The position numbers were made by a program, and so were the translations under genes. From Escherichia phage vB_EcoM_E9.1, in sequence record PP886230: DNA of 64,000 bases; one strand, written 5' to 3'. Under the pieces are notes generated by a model. The model made no database searches, was not told the DNA's origin, and was given only the letters and a program-made list of their open reading frames with translations. Positions 15,738 through 22,103 of the stretch are shown one piece after another (position 1 is the stretch's first letter; the number at the start of each line of letters is the position of its first letter).

Positions 15738-16133
15738 ATGAAGAACAATATTGGAACTTCAATAATTAAACCACTTTCTTATTACCTTGAAAAATTTAGA
15801 AGCACAAATGGTAATAAATTTAATAATATATTTCAGTTCTCTCATAAAGAATATATTACAATTGATCATTTTTCAAAGAAACTAATGTATGTAAATGATA
15901 ATAGTCATATTATTAAATTATCATTCGATATTGAGTTAGATAAATTAACATTTACTGAATACATTAATCAAAAAACTTCTTTTTTATGTCAATACAATAG
16001 GAAAGTATATAGTAATATTTCTATGTATCTAAATGATGAATATCACTTTCAACAATCTACAATAGAAGAAGTATTGTTCAGTACTGAAGAATTAAAAGAA
16101 CTATATTACTGGTATAATTATTTCACATCTTGA
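15738..16133 (+). CDS. EE-x-FFQ family small protein
   Basis: C-terminal ...NDEYHFQQSTIEEV...; RBS GAGGA. Confidence 0.55.
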   Translation: MKNNIGTSIIKPLSYYLEKFRSTNGNKFNNIFQFSHKEYITIDHFSKKLMYVNDNSHIIKLSFDIELDKLTFTEYINQKTSFLCQYNRKVYSNISMYLNDEYHFQQSTIEEVLFSTEELKELYYWYNYFTS

Positions 16134-16188
16134 CATTATTGTGGGTTTATCCTACAATACATGATGATGCTGCATTGAGGATAAATTT

Positions 16189-16599
16189 ATGAGTTTAGAT
16201 TTACACAATGAACTAAAATATTTTTTAGATTTGGACATATCAGAATTGAACCACCACGTCAATCATATGACTAGTACTGTATGGTGGTCTAATGAACAAG
16301 ACGACCCAATTATCCAACTAAGTGATGAATCGTCAATTATGCGATTTTATAAGATTAATTATAAAAAGAACATCAAGATCACATATGTACCATACAAAAA
16401 CATACTACTAGTCGAAACACTTAATCCAAGTTCTTTATTAAAAATCACCGATTTAGATACATTACAAACAAGTGAATCTTTATTCCAACGTTCATTAGTT
16501 GATGATCTTGGTGGTATTACTTTTGAAGATATATTACAATTGAAGAATATGTATAGTGAATTGTTGGAGATTAAAAACACTTTAGTAATGGGGAATTGA
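16189..16599 (+). CDS. EE-x-FFQ family small protein
   Basis: C-terminal ...SESLFQRSLVDDLGGITFEDILQL... Confidence 0.6.
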   Translation: MSLDLHNELKYFLDLDISELNHHVNHMTSTVWWSNEQDDPIIQLSDESSIMRFYKINYKKNIKITYVPYKNILLVETLNPSSLLKITDLDTLQTSESLFQRSLVDDLGGITFEDILQLKNMYSELLEIKNTLVMGN

Positions 16600-16600
16600 T

Positions 16601-17005
16601 ATGGTAAGTTTACTAGATATTGATAATACCAGTTTAGTGCTGGTGAAAAAAGGTTTAATTCCAAATTCTAAAAAAATTGATTATGCTGTTATTGAAACAA
16701 ATATTGGAAATATCTGGTACGACTCTGAAAGGGATATTGTGTTTAGCTGTGTAGACAGTGATCGTTCTGAATGTTGTAGAGTCGGTCATGACGGACAATT
16801 TGTTTTTGAATTTCGTTATTGGAAGGACGCAAAATTTCACCAAGAACTGGTTGCTTTGTCAAATGAACTATATACAGAAGAATCGTTCTTCATGGCTAGT
16901 ACTATTAATGATTTTGGTTCAGTTACATTTGAGTACTATAAAAAAATATACGCACTATCCAGAGAAGTTATGAAAATTATCAGAACTGCTGAAGGTAAAG
17001 AATAA
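16601..17005 (+). CDS. EE-x-FFQ family small protein
   Basis: C-terminal ...EESFFMASTINDFGSVTFEYY... Confidence 0.6.
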   Translation: MVSLLDIDNTSLVLVKKGLIPNSKKIDYAVIETNIGNIWYDSERDIVFSCVDSDRSECCRVGHDGQFVFEFRYWKDAKFHQELVALSNELYTEESFFMASTINDFGSVTFEYYKKIYALSREVMKIIRTAEGKE

Positions 17006-17006
17006 C

Positions 17007-17384
17007 ATGACTACTATATATGATATTTTGGGTGTTCTGAGTAGAAATATAGATGATGATTTTGTTATTGTTCAAGATACTAGAAATACATTTCAACTAC
17101 CAATAGGTTCACCAGATAGGTTAATTTTTAATAGATACTCAAATGAACTAACTTACATCCATGATGGGATTGCAATTGTATCAGTTTCTATAAACGACTA
17201 TACAATACGATATGTATATGACTTCAACGATTATTGTACAAGAATCCACAGTATTGATATTTCCGAAGAGGAACTATTCCAATTGTCATTGATTGAGAAA
17301 AATGTAATAGGAATTACAGAAATTGGTATTATTAAAAAAGCATTAAACTATACAAATATAAGAATTAATGGTGGGTGCGGATGA
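17007..17384 (+). CDS. EE-x-FFQ family small protein
   Basis: C-terminal ...EEELFQLSLIEKNVIGITEIGII... Confidence 0.6.
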   Translation: MTTIYDILGVLSRNIDDDFVIVQDTRNTFQLPIGSPDRLIFNRYSNELTYIHDGIAIVSVSINDYTIRYVYDFNDYCTRIHSIDISEEELFQLSLIEKNVIGITEIGIIKKALNYTNIRINGGCG

Positions 17385-17836
17385 ATGTTGACGAAATAAA
17401 AAATCATTTTGAAATTGCAATGTCATGTGAATTTGACACACAACGTGTTCATGACCCGAAAGAACATATACGCATTTGTTGTGAATTGTCAGATGATTGT
17501 AATATTTTTATTGGAAAAACCTATGACATGATCGATCTTTCATGTATAGATCCATTGGAAAGAAAAACAAAATATTTATATCTGTACAACACAACATCAG
17601 ATACGATTGCAATACAACTAATATCAACCACAACATCCCAAAGTTATTATAACATAACTGAGGTTAGTAGTTTAACGTTAACCGAAGAAGGATTCTTTCA
17701 ACAATCGCTTATTCGTGAAATTGGTGTTAGTTATGATGAGTTAAATGTATTAGTAGATTGTTTCGAAAAATTGAGTACTTTTGTATTATCCCTTTTTAAT
17801 ATACAGTCGCAAAATCCAATGGTGGTGAAATGCTAA
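17375..17836 (+). CDS. EE-x-FFQ family small protein
   Basis: C-terminal ...EEGFFQQSLIREIGVSYDELNVL... Confidence 0.6.
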   Translation: MRMNVDEIKNHFEIAMSCEFDTQRVHDPKEHIRICCELSDDCNIFIGKTYDMIDLSCIDPLERKTKYLYLYNTTSDTIAIQLISTTTSQSYYNITEVSSLTLTEEGFFQQSLIREIGVSYDELNVLVDCFEKLSTFVLSLFNIQSQNPMVVKC

Positions 17837-18270
17837 ATCCAAGTAAATTTCTCCACTTACTTTCGATAACATCAATACCGGATCTTACCAGTGAAACTAA
17901 TGAATATCGTGAAGCTGGGGTGGTGTCTATGGAACTCGATACATTTGACCACAAATGCTATGTGACATATGACCCACCGCGTTATGGTAAAGAACATTCT
18001 TCTTTTATTTTTGTATTCGTATACACTGTATATGATAATACAACACTTGATGATGTTTGTATTGACACTTACGAAATTTGTGATAATATCATAACTGATG
18101 ACAACAATAATTCATTTGATATGTCACTATATAACACAGAAGAATCGTTGTTTCAACTTAGTACTGTTATTGATGCACCATCATTAGAAGATATAAAACA
18201 ATTTCAAGAACATCTTGACGCAGTTCGTGAGATGTTCTATAATCATTATCCAGAAGTAGAGTTCAATTAA
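17830..18270 (+). CDS. EE-x-FFQ family small protein
   Basis: C-terminal ...EESLFQLSTVIDAPSLEDIKQF... Confidence 0.6.
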   Translation: MLNPSKFLHLLSITSIPDLTSETNEYREAGVVSMELDTFDHKCYVTYDPPRYGKEHSSFIFVFVYTVYDNTTLDDVCIDTYEICDNIITDDNNNSFDMSLYNTEESLFQLSTVIDAPSLEDIKQFQEHLDAVREMFYNHYPEVEFN

Positions 18271-18284
18271 CTAAAGGTAATAAG

Positions 18285-18545
18285 ATGACTAAAGTAGTTC
18301 GTAAACGCCACATGATGAACATGGATGAATTTCGCACATTTGACAAATATCGTACTATGTTTCGTATGCTTTCACAGGGCCGTCCAATCGTCATTGTAAC
18401 AGAGAATTACATGTCACCTGAGATTATGTTTGGTAATTATGAAAAGGTCTTCATGTTGTACGTGAAGCGTGGATTACTTACAATCAAGACATTAGCTGAA
18501 GCAACTGATGAAGATATGGATGGTGATAATACCTTTACCATGTGA
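18285..18545 (+). CDS. hypothetical protein
   Basis: Track ORF; RBS AAGG. Confidence 0.5.
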   Translation: MTKVVRKRHMMNMDEFRTFDKYRTMFRMLSQGRPIVIVTENYMSPEIMFGNYEKVFMLYVKRGLLTIKTLAEATDEDMDGDNTFTM

Positions 18546-18620
18546 GGAAATATATGTCTGAAAAGCCAAAAGAACCATTAGATCGTGATGATGATTTTTA
18601 TGACGAACGATATGGAGATG

Positions 18621-18875
18621 ATGATGAGTGAACATAGTGATGTGCTTAAAAAGATTTTAAAGGAACTTGATGGTGAGTTTAATGTCACAGAAGAAGAATA
18701 TGAGCATTGGAAGAAAGGTTTTGAACAACTAACCGAGTATGATAAAGTGTTCAATATGATTGGCGTAATTAGCCAGTACTTACTCGGTGGAGGACGTGCA
18801 AGTGCTTCAATTCTGGCATCTGCAATCATCTGTACATCACGATGGTGTGATGAAAAAAGTTTGGAAGATTTCTAA
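18621..18875 (+). CDS. hypothetical protein (start uncertain)
   Basis: Track ORF 18585..18875; run of ATG codons after GGAG at 18614-17. Confidence 0.4.
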   Translation: MMSEHSDVLKKILKELDGEFNVTEEEYEHWKKGFEQLTEYDKVFNMIGVISQYLLGGGRASASILASAIICTSRWCDEKSLEDF

Positions 18876-18890
18876 ATAAGATGCTATAAT
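18861..18890 (+). promoter_or_regulatory. sigma70-like promoter, extended -10
   Basis: TTGGAA-N18-TGcTATAAT upstream of the methyltransferase gene. Confidence 0.45.
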
Positions 18891-18927
18891 ATATTATAGT
18901 ACCTTAACAATATAAAAAGGATTTTAT

Positions 18928-19788
18928 ATGAAACCTATCCGAGTACTTTCTCTTTTTAATGGAATGAGTGTGGGATATATGGCATTGCAAGATGCTGGTA
19001 TCCCAGTTGAAAAATATTATTCATCCGAAATTGACAAGTACGCAATAGCTGAATCTCAAGCTAACTTTCCTGATATTATCCAATTGGGTGATGTAACTAA
19101 GTGGAGAGAATGGGATATTGAGTGGGATAAAATAGATTTATTAATGGGTGGTTTCCCATGTCAAGCCTGGTCAGTTGCAGGTAAACAGGGTGGTTTAAAT
19201 GATATACGTGGGCAGTTATTTTTAGTAATGGTTGAAATTTTTGATCATATCAAAAGTCTCAATCCTAACTTGAAATTTCTGTTTGAAAATGTTAAAATGA
19301 AGGAAGATTTCAAAGAATACATTAATAGTATTTTAGGAATCACGCCAGTACTGATAAACTCCCAGCATTATACGCCTCACTTCAGGCAGAGATATTACTG
19401 GTACAGTACTGATAAGCTTTTTATACCACCTGCATTATCCAATGCACCTAAACTTCAAGATATTATTGAAGATGGTTGGTACACTGACAGAACCGCTTCG
19501 TACTGTATAGATGCTAACTATTTTAAAGGTGGTGATTGTAACCAGTACTTTAATAAATCCAGACGACAATTGGTGTTTCGTGACCCAGTGATCAGTCGTC
19601 AATATCTATTAGAGAATGGCAAAAGAAATATTGACTATAGACACTTAAGTGTAGTAGAATGTTGTAAATTACAGGGTGTTCCTGAAGATTTCTTTAAAGT
19701 GTCTAGTAAGACACAAGCATACAAAATGCTTGGGAATGGATGGACTATGCCAGTTATATCACATTTACTAAGAGAGATATTCTTTTGA
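18928..19788 (+). CDS. DNA (cytosine-5)-methyltransferase
   Basis: Motif I LFNGMSVG, motif IV GGFPCQAWS (PCQ), motif VI ENV, motif VIII FRQRYYW, C-terminal GNGWTMP; RBS AAAGGA. Confidence 0.8.
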   Translation: MKPIRVLSLFNGMSVGYMALQDAGIPVEKYYSSEIDKYAIAESQANFPDIIQLGDVTKWREWDIEWDKIDLLMGGFPCQAWSVAGKQGGLNDIRGQLFLVMVEIFDHIKSLNPNLKFLFENVKMKEDFKEYINSILGITPVLINSQHYTPHFRQRYYWYSTDKLFIPPALSNAPKLQDIIEDGWYTDRTASYCIDANYFKGGDCNQYFNKSRRQLVFRDPVISRQYLLENGKRNIDYRHLSVVECCKLQGVPEDFFKVSSKTQAYKMLGNGWTMPVISHLLREIFF

Positions 19789-20270
19789 ACATAAACAAAT
19801 ACCAAACTTATATAAAACGTACAGAAAGTTTCAAACGGCTGGCTGTAAAATCTGAATTAGAATTTAATTTGTATTATCCTAATATTGGTGATGAGGTATT
19901 TTATTGCTCTCATTCAAAGAATGGAACTTTACTTAAATCGGGTAAAGGAACTATTGTTGATATGACCGCAAATTTCAGAGGTAAACTTAATGTAATGTAC
20001 AAAGTACAAGATTCAAGTACTGAGTGTATTCATGAAGTGATGCATAACATACCTGCATATCCAAAAGATTTTGTTCAGCTAATATCTCGAAGGGAGAAAC
20101 CTATGTTTTATTGTGGTTACGACAAATTAACCAAACAAATTATTCCTAATACTATGGGAAAATTTAAAAGTGATGTGAAATCTGAACTTGAAAAGAAATT
20201 TGGCACGTCATGGGAAACTGAAAACGAGTTTATCGAAATTCGTTTAATTGAAATTACTATACTTGAATAA
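19740..20270 (+). CDS. hypothetical protein (start uncertain)
   Basis: Track ORF overlapping the methyltransferase 3' end by 48 nt; alternative TTG start at 19785. Confidence 0.5.
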   Translation: MDYASYITFTKRDILLNINKYQTYIKRTESFKRLAVKSELEFNLYYPNIGDEVFYCSHSKNGTLLKSGKGTIVDMTANFRGKLNVMYKVQDSSTECIHEVMHNIPAYPKDFVQLISRREKPMFYCGYDKLTKQIIPNTMGKFKSDVKSELEKKFGTSWETENEFIEIRLIEITILE

Positions 20271-20274
20271 TTAC

Positions 20275-20299
20275 AAATCCACGCATTGCGTGGATTTTT
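20275..20299 (+). terminator. intrinsic terminator
   Basis: ATCCACGC-ATT-GCGTGGAT hairpin followed by TTTTT. Confidence 0.65.
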
Positions 20300-20312
20300 C
20301 ACAGGTGCATAT

Positions 20313-20828
20313 ATGCCAATTCCTTATGTTAAAATTATTAATAATATTCTCGATTCATGGGAAGATGTTATTACGGGTAAAAAGCAACCATCACCAGTAC
20401 ATGCTTTATCTGGGAAACTTCAATTCAGAATGTCAAACCAAACTGAAACATTTAATAATCATGATATTTGCATTACATTAAAAACACCTATTAGTATTGT
20501 AATTAAAAAAAATAAAGATGATGAATTGACATTATCTATTGGTCGTGATAAAATCATTTTAAGTAATTTGTCTGAAGAAGAATTCTTTCAAAGAAGTACT
20601 ATTATCGATATGAAAGATTTCACATATGAATCATTGGTTGAACTCAATACACGTTTTAACGATATTCAGGAACGATTGCGACCAATTCTTCGTATCGAAG
20701 AAGAAGCCTGGATTGAAAGTATTAGGAAGATGCAAGAAATGTTGAAAGAAAATATTAACAATCTGGGTAAAGCTACAATGGAATTTGGTAAAACTTTTAA
20801 ACTGAACTTTTCAAAGGATCGTAAATGA
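20313..20828 (+). CDS. EE-x-FFQ family small protein
   Basis: C-terminal ...EEEFFQRSTIIDMKDFTYESLVEL...; start moved to ATG 20313 downstream of terminator, RBS AGGTG. Confidence 0.6.
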   Translation: MPIPYVKIINNILDSWEDVITGKKQPSPVHALSGKLQFRMSNQTETFNNHDICITLKTPISIVIKKNKDDELTLSIGRDKIILSNLSEEEFFQRSTIIDMKDFTYESLVELNTRFNDIQERLRPILRIEEEAWIESIRKMQEMLKENINNLGKATMEFGKTFKLNFSKDRK

Positions 20829-21280
20829 AAATTGATAATTTGATTCATGTTTTAGGATCTTTACATAAAATATTATCACATCTACATGAGATAAAGAAAC
20901 TGGGATTTAACATCTCAAATTCAATTGAAACTACATTTAAATATCAATCAATTACTGGTGATGGTTATTACATAATCGAATATACTTATGAAACCGATCC
21001 AGACTTCTATCCTCTTACGTTGAGAATTTATCCAACAAATCCGAGAGGAATTCACGACATATCATCAATTTCACTTGATCCAGATGGTGAAACGAGTATT
21101 GAATACAATAATGATTCAAAACCAGAATTTTACATTGATGATATTAAAATGATGTTCAACGATGAATATGTGTTCCAGCAAAGTACAGTGCATGATGTTG
21201 GAAGTACTAATGGACAATTTTGGAATACATGTTATTATCATATGATTGAAATTTGTAAATTACTAAAAGGTGATGATTAA
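20825..21280 (+). CDS. EE-x-FFQ family small protein
   Basis: C-terminal ...NDEYVFQQSTVHDVGS...; ATGA overlap. Confidence 0.6.
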   Translation: MKIDNLIHVLGSLHKILSHLHEIKKLGFNISNSIETTFKYQSITGDGYYIIEYTYETDPDFYPLTLRIYPTNPRGIHDISSISLDPDGETSIEYNNDSKPEFYIDDIKMMFNDEYVFQQSTVHDVGSTNGQFWNTCYYHMIEICKLLKGDD

Positions 21281-21663
21281 TGAAATACAGCATTGAAGTA
21301 CATTACACTACAGGGGACACTGAAACTGAAGATTCAGTTACCAATACATTGGATGTTCAATGGGAATCAAAGGATGAGGCAGTTGTAGCATTACAGTCTT
21401 TGAAAGAGCATTGGGTATTCTTTAAGAAACTCGATGATGCATATAGTAACGAACGTGCGACAATAATCGATGAAGCCAAACATAAAGAATGGTTTGATCC
21501 AATGTCATGTGAATTCTCTTTCTTTGTAAAAATTGGAGATAAAAAAATTCCAGTACGAACACCGTGGAACGGCTACTTTGAAACTCTTCATAATGCACGA
21601 GTTGTCGCTGTTGATAATCCTGAGCAAATCGATTTCGATTCATTGGACTGGAAAAAACTATGA
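21280..21663 (+). CDS. hypothetical protein
   Basis: Track ORF; coupled start. Confidence 0.55.
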   Translation: MKYSIEVHYTTGDTETEDSVTNTLDVQWESKDEAVVALQSLKEHWVFFKKLDDAYSNERATIIDEAKHKEWFDPMSCEFSFFVKIGDKKIPVRTPWNGYFETLHNARVVAVDNPEQIDFDSLDWKKL

Positions 21664-22103
21664 CAGTACTGCACCAATTGAAGAAGGTTAAGCATCCAGT
21701 TGTATACGAGGATTGGAAACGACAGAAGTTGATGGGTGATTTTTATTTCCCAAAATCTAAAGTACTAGCAACGTCAAAAGCTATATACTTGAAATATAAG
21801 GATGAAGATTGTTTGTGTATTCAAATGGGATTCCATCCTAAAGTTGGTTTGTTTACAACAAATCAAACATTTTATAAATTTAGAATTCAAAAAGATACAT
21901 TTAGTATTCATATCGAAAAACATGATGTACAAGATACAATTTATCGTGTGGAAAGTGAGCCTTTGAATCTTGTTGAGATCCCGTACAATAATTTAGAAGA
22001 AATGTACTTTCAGCAGTTGACAATACAAGAAGACTTTGGTATGATAGGACTTCAAGAGTTAGAGATGATTAAACAAATTCGTGATATCTACTTTAAGGAG
22101 TAA
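21660..22103 (+). CDS. EE-x-FFQ family small protein
   Basis: C-terminal ...EEMYFQQLTIQEDFGMIGLQELEMI... Confidence 0.6.
   Translation: MTVLHQLKKVKHPVVYEDWKRQKLMGDFYFPKSKVLATSKAIYLKYKDEDCLCIQMGFHPKVGLFTTNQTFYKFRIQKDTFSIHIEKHDVQDTIYRVESEPLNLVEIPYNNLEEMYFQQLTIQEDFGMIGLQELEMIKQIRDIYFKE

Follow-up and report, generated by a model that had tools for sequence, protein, structure and literature searches.

A stand-alone cytosine-5 methyltransferase in a jumbo phage of the 121Q/RaK2 type, with a catalytic core most like that of animal DNMT3

Orphan cytosine-5 (C5) methyltransferases of phages are textbook anti-restriction devices. The gene at positions 18928..19788 of the window, that is, of the whole 64,000-nucleotide stretch of Escherichia phage vB_EcoM_E9.1 DNA that was analysed, raises the question of which sequence such an enzyme methylates, and to what end, in DNA where the hexamer AGTACT is far commoner than expected. 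The reading favoured here, with somewhat better than even confidence, is that the product of this gene is an active orphan C5 methyltransferase, probably expressed early, which protects progeny DNA and most likely targets CpG.

The locus holds a genuine, intact C5 methyltransferase gene that stands alone in a jumbo phage of the 121Q/RaK2 type. An earlier note, made from the sequence alone, had placed a 286-aa C5 methyltransferase here, and both coordinates and family were borne out by the open reading frame (ORF) listing and by three profile collections. The product matched Pfam PF00145 with E=4e-38 and 132 bits (cut-off 22 bits) and NCBIfam TIGR00675 (dcm) with 120 bits (cut-off 100.65 bits), both scores exceeding the curated thresholds for the DNA cytosine-5 methyltransferase family, and PHROG 116 (phrog_116, ‘DNA methyltransferase’) covers residues 1-285 with E=1e-60. 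The novelty of the gene call is low, as it brings nothing beyond existing records. The source is an Asteriusvirus jumbo phage, 99.6% identical to 121Q/PBECO4/G17, in whose records the gene already carries the name DNA cytosine methyltransferase; G17, CRJP21 and Sharanji have a methyltransferase gene 100% identical to that of the window, and more than 30 phage records hold the same protein, already named. With a gene already annotated, a DNMT3-like core and a probable CpG target, the case is therefore largely ordinary.

The motifs of the protein were read from the sequence and checked on a 35-sequence homologue alignment (A1), giving the following features:

18928..19788, plus strand: methyltransferase ORF, ATG start, 286 aa plus stop, from the ORF listing and the sequence
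18955..18975, plus strand: motif I, AdoMet-binding loop F10-N-G-M-S-V-G16, with F10, G12 and S14 invariant in A1
19156..19164, plus strand: motif IV, P77-C78-Q79, with the catalytic cysteine
19285..19293, plus strand: motif VI, E120-N121-V122, invariant in A1
19384..19392, plus strand: motif VIII, R153-Q154-R155 in ‘HFRQRYYW’, with R153, R155, Y157 and W158 invariant
19405..19635, plus strand: short target-recognition region, about residues 160-236, holding the family-conserved ‘SYCIDANYFKGG...NKSRRQ’ segment
19732..19737, plus strand: motif X, G269-N270 in ‘LGNGWTMPVISHL’, with G269, N270 and G271 invariant

The order of motifs (I-VIII, target-recognition domain or TRD, IX-X) is kept and is colinear with alignments to DNMT3 and M.HaeIII. 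The canonical series FxGxG, PCQ, ENV, QxRxR, GN, which had been read from the sequence beforehand, stands as written for PCQ, ENV and GN, but the other two are present only as variants: the third position of a literal FxGxG is Ser14, in a loop that lines up with ‘FDGIATG’ of DNMT3, and in motif VIII (H151-F-R153-Q-R155, which pairs with ‘RARYFW’ of DNMT3) a His occupies the place where most homologues have the leading Gln. Motif X pairs with ‘LGRSWSVPVIRHL’ of DNMT3, and its G269-N270-G271-W is invariant. A missing catalytic Cys in PCQ had been named among the observations that would overturn the assignment; Cys78 lies within P77-C78-Q79, with P77 and C78 invariant in the 35 sequences, as are all the catalytic residues. 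The compactness of the protein and the shortness of its TRD were also correctly seen, since an insert of 40-60 residues with the classical TRD ‘T-L’ element, located between ‘RRQLVF’ and ‘YRKLT’, occurs in longer homologues and is absent from the window protein. Within the recognition region, C193, A196, Y198, K200, K210, R212 and R213 are invariant in A1, and the pLDDT of the AlphaFold2 model runs from 76 to 96.

For the 286-aa protein as a whole the model, which shows the Rossmann-type fold of the family, has a pLDDT of 92 and a pTM of 0.90, and, as judged from this model and from sequence comparison, the catalytic core looks most like that of the animal DNMT3 enzymes, which are CpG methylases. 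The top 50 PDB hits in Foldseek are all DNMT3 (TM 0.73-0.81, rmsd ~3 Å, 25-28% identity), and the best PDB sequence hits are the catalytic domains of DNMT3C/3A/3B, aligned end to end (residues 2-282) with E ~2e-23; the DNMT3A/DNMT3B/DNMT3C catalytic domain (PDB 5YX2, 6KDA, 8TCI) is the best match by both sequence and structure among solved structures. The two are colinear over 286 aa with a TM of ~0.8 and 26-28% identity, and have in common a recognition loop that is very short, the FxGxxxG form of motif I, and the signatures R-x-R-Y-(Y/F)-W and G-x-x-W-(T/S)-x-P-V-I-x-H-L. Unlike DNMT3, the window protein has no PWWP or ADD domain and no DNMT3L partner, its 286 aa being all catalytic domain, and its catalytic loop (PCQAWSVAGKQGG) follows the bacterial M.HhaI pattern instead of the PCNDLSIVNP of DNMT3. 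The guanine-contacting positions of DNMT3 are only partly matched in an HMM alignment, with K200 standing opposite what we take to be R836 of DNMT3A and K777 of DNMT3B, and G202 opposite N838 and N779, respectively. Phage genes of this kind have already been labelled ‘DNMT3A’ by KEGG-based pipelines.

The bacterial enzymes M.HhaI (GCGC) and M.HaeIII (GGCC) have the fold, the ten-motif order and the style of catalytic loop in common with the window protein, but score below DNMT3 in the PDB sequence search (8e-18 and ~2e-17), and the M.HhaI match (E ~1e-17) covers the N-terminal half only, motifs I-VI. Both are 324-331 aa long, have partner endonucleases, and carry a large TRD with the T-L element that the window protein lacks. 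GCGC can be ruled out as the sequence methylated in the phage's own genome, which contains no such site. An M.HaeIII identity was considered and rejected, as 1DCT/3UBT align in two separate stretches (the best at 6-204, E ~2e-17) and less well than DNMT3, and similarity running through the TRD, from which GGCC specificity would follow, was not found; the labels ‘HaeIII’, ‘HpaII’ and ‘DNMT2’ in public records were likewise rejected as automated names. GGCC is depleted in the 64-kb window, and all palindromic hexamers containing it are absent.

The last of these labels touches on the notion that the protein does not act on DNA at all, or modifies RNA or tRNA as DNMT2 does. These phages do have many tRNA genes, along with tRNA-related enzymes near the orthologue, and the homologue of phage Turkey5 carries the automated ‘DNMT2’ name. 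Such a role is nonetheless scarcely credible: DNMT2/TRDMT1 structures align with residues 1-170 only, at E 4e-10 to 1e-6 (against 2e-23 for DNMT3 and 8e-18 for M.HhaI), the catalytic residues of DNA methyltransferases are all invariant, and 5mC has been reported in the DNA of phage RaK2 (PMC3622015).

Orthologues are found across the RaK2-like jumbo phages: 121Q gp91, the ‘haeIIIM’ genes of PBECO4, G17, phAPEC6 and Sharanji, GAP32_390, CBB_399, K64-1 gp237 and that of RaK2. They agree with the window gene in length, in motifs and in a neighbourhood of small early-type ORFs, with no substantial difference, and their identity to it is 100-99% within Asteriusvirus, 75-78% in Mimasvirus and CBB and 64% in K64-1 and RaK2, so that the gene is kept at 64-100% identity over Asteriusvirus, Mimasvirus and Alcyoneusvirus. 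The RaK2 protein reads PCT at the PCQ position and its catalytic loop is longer by an 8-residue insert, but it retains the conserved recognition segment. TH47 and UE-S1, and probably JNE01 and A4, differ from the window gene in carrying an intein of ~340 aa before Cys78; in TH47 and UE-S1 it sits immediately before the catalytic Cys codon and leaves the gene in frame. The split genes of these two phages were entertained as pseudogenes, which would have made them natural knockouts, and rejected on these grounds; no natural knockout of the methyltransferase was found among the clade members examined. Cross-genus conservation and the maintenance of frame around an intein both count in favour of a function under selection. 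The gene is mentioned, by annotation only, in the papers on Sharanji, phAPEC6 and CBB (PMC5259590) and in jumbo-phage reviews.

Beyond this clade, the window protein belongs, as its compact form, to a very large phage family. Phage orphans of PHROG 116 (phi92 gp043, ICP1 and RB16-type enzymes, and those of Vibrio, Bacteroides and Cellulophaga phages) are 35-52% identical to it over the full length, share the segment ‘CIDANYxKGG...KSRRQ’ and lie in phage or prophage contexts with no nuclease partner; many differ in bearing the extra TRD insert, and their genomes lack both AGTACT enrichment and the absence of GCGC. The literature searched held no specificity data for any of these enzymes.

Whether the enzyme acts alone depends on its neighbours. 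The earlier note had seen no adjacent restriction enzyme, and for profile searches this holds: among the ten flanking ORFs (17007..22103; ~3 kb on each side) Pfam, annotated PHROG and PADLOC matched no nuclease, and clustering of 1195 neighbour ORFs from 159 homologue loci yielded no recurrent nuclease family, the recurrent neighbours being another DPPY-type methyltransferase, integrases, helicases and structural genes. The adjacent cognate endonuclease that marks a Type II restriction-modification system was therefore found neither among the ten ORFs nor as a recurrent partner at the 159 loci, and on this basis the label ‘orphan’ holds, with the proviso that divergent nucleases may escape profile searches of the Pfam, PHROG and PADLOC kind.

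A cryptic restriction-modification or host-shutoff pair, in which an unrecognised phage nuclease, encoded close by or elsewhere in the genome, would cut unmethylated DNA while the methyltransferase shielded that of the phage, trades on this proviso, restriction endonucleases being too divergent for exclusion by profile. Every flanking ORF lacks an assigned function, a downstream ORF of 176 aa overlaps the end of the methyltransferase gene by 49 nt and is weakly matched 3' of the GAP32 orthologue, and the complete lack of GCGC suggests that some nuclease acts on the clade. We regard such a pair as very unlikely, however, as the ten neighbours show no nuclease fold or motif in Pfam, PHROGs or PADLOC, none of the neighbour families tracks the methyltransferase through the 159 loci, and the upstream neighbour is not conserved, differing between the 121Q-type phages and GAP32. 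Moreover, a nuclease cutting GCGC would need no methyltransferase as a partner, because the phage has zero GCGC sites.

With a stand-alone enzyme as the preferred reading, the main issue becomes its target. The earlier note had speculated that this could relate to the enriched motif AGTACT, and the enrichment is real, with 166 sites in the 64-kb window against 21.5 expected from composition, or ~1 site per 385 bp. In the clade members examined AGTACT is enriched 7-10x, CAGTAC/GTACTG are the top hexamers, and an orthologue of the methyltransferase is present in all; the gene itself holds four of the sites. In each of the three frames synonymous codons are chosen in favour of the motif, which keeps the enrichment up, and a DNA-level reader of AGTACT must therefore exist. 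It is thus conceivable that the enzyme methylates the cytosine of AGTACT/(C)AGTACT(G), placing a genome-wide mark on phage DNA that is read by phage machinery or that shields against a ScaI/RsaI-type enzyme. In the improbable event that this is true, 5mC on (C)AGTACT(G) would be a dense, sequence-encoded epigenetic self-mark of RaK2-like jumbo phages, and it would be read during packaging, in replication or by a host-DNA nuclease so as to tell phage from host DNA.

The proposed target is not borne out by a wider comparison. AGTACT is enriched only in the RaK2-like clade (window, TH47, GAP32, XbC2, K64-1, RaK2), and since every member of that clade has both, the co-occurrence of enzyme and motif is inseparable from shared ancestry. 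The motif is at or below expectation in phi92 (homologue 51% identical), ICP1 (45%) and 66 IMG/VR homologue loci of more than 8 kb, and across ~150 phage or prophage loci outside the clade that carry homologues the enrichment is lacking; phi92, ICP1 and the ~150 loci share the recognition segment and often lack AGTACT altogether, many 20-kb loci having 0 sites against ~6.5 expected. A family-wide link was accordingly rejected, and the enzyme-site association across genomes that would mark an AGTACT/GTAC-specific methyltransferase was not found. Methylated cytosines are expected to show more C/T differences, whereas among close relatives GTAC cytosines differ at 0.61x the average C/T rate, and those of GTACT at 0.46x. 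Since the substrate of McrBC is R-m5C, A-m5C every ~385 bp would be open to attack, yet the record of a relative names a K-12 host. Protection by methylation could account for AGTACT being tolerated but not for an 8-fold enrichment that synonymous-codon choice maintains, and phage-encoded adenine methyltransferases could equally act on the motif. Together with the RaK2 bisulfite statement, which names CpG (PMC3622015), these observations make methylation of AGTACT by this enzyme quite unlikely. As an observation in its own right, the motif is under strong positive selection as DNA sequence, in the RaK2-like clade only; no paper on its over-representation in phages was found in a literature search.

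The most likely target is instead CpG or a short CpG-containing site, which is the best available guess because a statement of 5-methyl-CpG in RaK2 coincides with CpG depletion and an excess of TpG/CpA. The RaK2 authors reported methylated CpG by bisulfite sequencing, as data not shown and with no definition of the site (PMC3622015). In the window, TH47, UE-S1 and K64-1 the symmetrised odds ratio is 0.78 for CpG and 1.25 for TpG/CpA, against 0.96 and 0.98 in PA5oct, which gave no homologue hit and is the sole homologue-free control. CpG depletion is also common in AT-rich genomes that are not methylated. The case for CpG as the target therefore comes down to one unshown bisulfite result on a 64%-identical orthologue, the resemblance to DNMT3, and dinucleotide statistics. 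A poorly targeted search of the literature on Asteriusvirus methylation returned nothing useful.

Mutational footprints were sought by aligning the window to ECO103 4-12-1 (98.5%), IA-38 (99.1%), UE-S1 (90.6%) and TH47 (83%). The raw excess of C/T differences at CpG is 1.58x (p=4e-5) and is largely an effect of codon position. Of three contrasts, two show more C/T differences at synonymous third positions when G follows (OR 1.44, p=0.02; OR 3.1, p=4e-8) and the closest shows no signal (OR 1.13); at four-fold degenerate sites alone the CpG signal is not significant (Mantel-Haenszel OR 1.33). The context-dependent excess at CpG is thus a weak hint and not evidence. Restriction-site avoidance gave no protection signal either, because CpG-containing and CpG-free palindromes are avoided alike; this equal avoidance, and the absence of GCGC, would be unexpected if CpG methylation protected effectively. 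The CpG-containing HpyCH4IV site ACGT occurs 199 times in the window. Further, McrBC, McrA and Mrr of E. coli K-12 attack m5C-containing DNA, and the Sharanji record lists K-12 MG1655 as host, so dense methylation would need a further anti-restriction function.

An active orphan enzyme in the usual anti-restriction role, directed at some other short target that is neither CpG nor AGTACT, therefore deserves to be kept in mind as a possible, if doubtful, solution. Specificity is not readable from sequence, and the recognition segment does not match that of DNMT3 in its details. The mutational signal at CpG is weak, avoidance extends to restriction sites that contain CpG, and bacterial C5 methyltransferases are described as generally highly site-specific (PMC11879396). 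Against this, once codon position is taken into account the context-specific C/T analysis picks out no rival motif, and the sole experimental statement found for the clade names CpG (PMC3622015).

Under the preferred reading of a CpG-directed orphan, the enzyme would follow the standard C5 mechanism, in which Cys78 would attack C6 of a flipped-out cytosine, Glu120 would protonate N3, and AdoMet, held by motifs I-III, would donate the methyl group. It would consist of a catalytic core and a very short recognition loop, a minimal layout as in the catalytic domain of animal DNMT3. Two elements precede the gene:

18861..18890, plus strand: sigma-70-like promoter candidate TTGGAA-18 nt-TATAAT, with 10/12 consensus matches plus an extended -10
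18915..18921, plus strand: Shine-Dalgarno-like AAAAGGA, read off the sequence 6 nt ahead of the ATG

The candidate promoter, in which TG precedes the -10 hexamer (TTGGAA-18-TGnTATAAT), lies 38 nt upstream of the ATG; a consensus scan found promoter-like sites in the region no commoner than chance, and it is therefore a positional inference only. The CBB orthologue, CBB_399, sits in a predicted early region with RpoD-like promoters (PMC5259590). Transcription is thus probably early, from a host-type promoter, and replicating phage DNA would probably be methylated, so that progeny genomes would be shielded from restriction enzymes of the next host that are sensitive to cytosine methylation.

If it is a CpG methylase, this natural single-domain, DNMT3-like enzyme of 286 aa would be a compact substitute for M.SssI and a convenient system in which to study CpG recognition by a minimal TRD. 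Identifying the target would also show which of three features of the clade, AGTACT selection, missing GCGC and avoided GC-rich palindromes, have to do with methylation and which do not. GCGC absence, AGTACT selection and the sister-phage intein are more interesting than the methyltransferase itself. The total absence of GCGC is a feature of the clade as a whole, GC-rich palindromes are avoided, and the intein of the sister phages lies at the catalytic cysteine.

The gene at 18928..19788 (+) starts with ATG and encodes 286 aa, exactly as the earlier note had read it, and every sequence and fold criterion tested places the product in the C5 DNA methyltransferase (MTase) family. Pfam PF00145 matches it at 132 bits (cut-off 22), NCBIfam TIGR00675 'dcm' at 120 bits (cut-off 100.65), and PHROG 116 'DNA methyltransferase' covers its full length; the family is very large, with at least 8000 clusters at E<1e-10, mostly from metagenomic and phage contigs. 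In an alignment of 35 homologues (49-87% identity) the invariant residues include F10, G12 and S14 of motif I, P77-C78 of motif IV, E120-N121-V122 of motif VI, R153, R155, Y157 and W158 of motif VIII, and G269-N270-G271 of motif X. The canonical motifs described from the sequence therefore stand with regard to the catalytic residues, including the cysteine of PCQ, the absence of which was to have spoken against the assignment, but not with regard to two literal strings: motif I reads FNGMSVG, and motif VIII reads HFRQR, in which R-x-R is retained and His replaces the leading Gln. Both are normal variants that are also found in DNMT3.

Public records already contain this gene, together with its annotation and presumed role. 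The window region shares 99.6% identity with Escherichia phages CRJP21, G17, SP27, Sharanji and phAPEC6, 99.4% with 121Q and 98.8% with PBECO4, relatives that belong to the genus Asteriusvirus of 350-kb jumbo myoviruses. The products of G17, CRJP21 and Sharanji are 100% identical to the window protein and are recorded under such names as DNA cytosine methyltransferase and 'modification methylase HaeIII', so that the gene call was already known; the Sharanji, phAPEC6 and CBB (PMC5259590) papers name the enzyme by annotation only, with a presumed anti-restriction function.

The protein has a compact recognition region. Longer homologues carry an insert of 40-60 residues between 'RRQLVF' and 'YRKLT' that holds the classical 'T-L' element of the target-recognition domain (e.g. 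KSRCLTT); the window MTase lacks this insert, and of the recognition region it keeps the 'SYCIDANYFKGG...NKSRRQ' segment that is conserved across the family. Prediction with AlphaFold2 from the 35-sequence alignment gave a confident model (pLDDT 92, pTM 0.90). Among solved structures the best sequence matches are the catalytic domains of mammalian DNMT3C, 3A and 3B, which align end to end (E ~2e-23), while M.HhaI matches the N-terminal half only (E ~1e-17); in the structure search DNMT3 made up all of the top 50 PDB matches (TM 0.73-0.81, 25-28% identity). On the strength of this model the MTase would work structurally like a bare DNMT3 catalytic domain, a likeness known from sequence and predicted fold and already mirrored by routine KEGG 'DNMT3A' labels on such phage genes. 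It is nonetheless no full member of the DNMT3 family, since the regulatory PWWP and ADD domains are missing, and it has a bacterial-type catalytic loop (PCQAWSVAGKQGG).

In two sister phages an insert of about 340 aa interrupts the gene in frame, exactly before catalytic Cys78 of PCQ:

L088:18741-20630, intein-bearing MTase gene of Escherichia virus TH47 (MT446416.1)
L090:20925-22805, intein-bearing MTase gene of UE-S1, CDS UES1_076, 626 aa

The insert starts with 'CFTEGT', carries a pair of LAGLIDADG motifs and has its last residues, 'VVHN', next to Cys78, features that mark it as an intein whose +1 nucleophile is the active-site cysteine of the MTase itself. Pfam matches above thresholds are Hint_2 (39.4 bits) and LAGLIDADG_3 (30.7 bits), and phages JNE01 and A4 give the same split tblastn pattern.

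Candidate expression signals lie before and within the gene:

18861-18890, promoter-like TTGGAA-18-TG-TATAAT, upstream of the MTase
6 nt before the MTase ATG, Shine-Dalgarno AAAAGGA
19631-19660, promoter-like TTGACT-18-TAGAAT, inside the MTase gene

Promoter-like matches are no denser in this region than chance would give, so the promoter at 18861-18890 is proposed from its position. The region of CBB that contains the orthologue CBB_399 has been assigned to early genes with RpoD-like promoters (PMC5259590). A perfect 16-bp palindrome, CTATAATATATTATAG (18884-18899), overlaps the -10 hexamer of the upstream element and might serve as an operator or form an AT-rich hairpin.

With regard to the methylation target, a CpG or CpG-containing site has close to an even chance in our assessment. 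The orthologue in locus L007, which we take to be the RaK2 genome, is 64% identical to the window MTase and keeps the recognition segment. RaK2 DNA was reported to be cut by methylation-insensitive enzymes only, and bisulfite sequencing to reveal methylated CpG (in neither case were the data shown; PMC3622015). For the window, TH47, UE-S1 and K64-1 the symmetrised odds ratio of CpG stands at 0.78 and that of TpG/CpA at 1.25, as against 0.96 and 0.98 in PA5oct, a phage with no homologue match at E<1e-30. Of three independent contrasts, two show always-synonymous third-position C/T differences to be commoner before G (OR 1.44, p=0.02; OR 3.1, p=4e-8; the other, OR 1.13, not significant); the effect is not significant at four-fold degenerate sites only (MH OR 1.33), and transversions are not individually significant in any of the contrasts. 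Taken together, the odds ratios and synonymous-site differences would agree weakly with a CpG target. We count against it that palindromes with CpG are avoided no less strongly than those without, that GCGC is totally absent, and that the Mcr/Mrr systems of K-12 should attack m5CpG DNA. That the enzyme methylates some other motif, neither CpG nor AGTACT, is somewhat unlikely.

The hexamer AGTACT, to which the earlier note had speculatively tied the target, occurs 166 times in the window, where composition predicts 21.5 and a maximal-order Markov model 127, evenly spaced at about one per 385 bp. Four sites fall inside the MTase gene:

18942, 19347, 19405 and 19544, starts of AGTACT

No tetramer is more over-represented than GTAC (438 vs 194), and among hexamers CAGTAC and GTACTG rank highest. 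At the DNA level strong positive selection keeps AGTACT, extended to (C)AGTACT(G), whichever of the three reading frames it falls in: TAC encodes Tyr in 28 of 32 xAG-Tyr-Txx contexts (29% elsewhere), Ser-Thr pairs are written AGT-ACT 58 times out of 97 (14.4 expected), and xxA-Val-Leu uses GTA-CTx in 44 of 69 (13 expected). We found no literature on AGTACT over-representation in phages.

Enrichment and MTase do occur together in every clade member examined, and the clade offers no natural MTase knockout, as the 'split' genes of TH47 and UE-S1 contain inteins and are in frame. The enrichment is common to the window, TH47, GAP32, XbC2, K64-1 and RaK2 (Asteriusvirus, Mimasvirus, Alcyoneusvirus); it is absent from phi92 (51% homologue), ICP1 (45%), PA5oct and 66 IMG/VR loci >8 kb with MTase homologues, and many 20-kb homologue loci have 0 sites where ~6.5 are expected. 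It is thus a trait of the clade and not of the MTase family. Among close relatives, C/T differences occur at 0.61x the average rate at the C of GTAC and at 0.46x in GTACT, which indicates conservation and not methyl-cytosine hypermutability. Protective methylation accounts for tolerance of sites, not for their 8-fold enrichment; moreover, A-m5C would be an McrBC substrate, and the recorded host of Sharanji is K-12. On these grounds the proposed link is very improbable.

The absence of an adjacent restriction enzyme was borne out. None of the ten flanking ORFs (17007..22103) has a Pfam domain or a PADLOC match, and they fall only in PHROGs of unknown function. GAP32 has no conserved counterpart of the upstream neighbour; a weak homologue (32% over 74 aa) of the downstream neighbour follows its orthologue:

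19740-20270, 176-aa ORF (phrog_28599), overlapping the MTase 3' end and stop by 49 nt

Around homologues at 79 IMG/VR and 80 bacterial or archaeal genome loci, 1195 neighbouring ORFs were clustered; DPPY-motif methyltransferases, integrases, helicases, a small NPPY methyltransferase and structural genes recur, and no nuclease family does. Orphan status is supported as far as restriction enzymes, which are hard to recognise, would show in such searches, and the MTase is not in a recognisable restriction-modification pair. The DPPY-motif (N6A/N4C type) methyltransferase is the commonest neighbour (11 loci in IMG/VR and bacterial genomes, within L008-L170) and the small NPPY-motif enzyme recurs in seven loci of this set, which suggests multi-methylase cassettes in phages and prophages.

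The gene also lies within a tandem array (15738-22103) of small paralogous proteins of 125-180 aa:

15738..16133, 16189..16599, 16601..17005, 17007..17384 and 17375..17836, array ORFs
17830..18270, 20286..20828, 20825..21280 and 21660..22103, array ORFs, continued

These belong to PHROGs of unknown function, have no significant Pfam domain and share a C-terminal tail, 'EExFFQQSTIxDxG', resembling 'EE(x)(F/L)FQ(Q/R/L)S(T/L)(I/V)xDxG...'.

Other words are unevenly distributed. GCGC occurs 0 times in the window (48 expected), in 50 kb of K64-1 (28), in 40 kb of TH47 (33.6), and in the GAP32, XbC2 and RaK2 loci, and is present in phi92, ICP1 and PA5oct; a loss so complete in three genera suggests selection of a lethal kind, such as a host or phage nuclease that cuts GCGC would exert. 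Zero occurrences are found for 26 of the 64 palindromic hexamers, nearly all GC-rich, with GTGCAC (12 vs 5.3) and CACGTG (8 vs 5.3) as enriched exceptions. TGGTGA is about 4-fold and CTGGTG about 5-fold over-represented (31 vs 6.3, a count of the hexamer and not of the full octamer); CTGGTG, which leads the hexamers of phi92 as well, forms the core of the Chi sequence of E. coli, GCTGGTGG.
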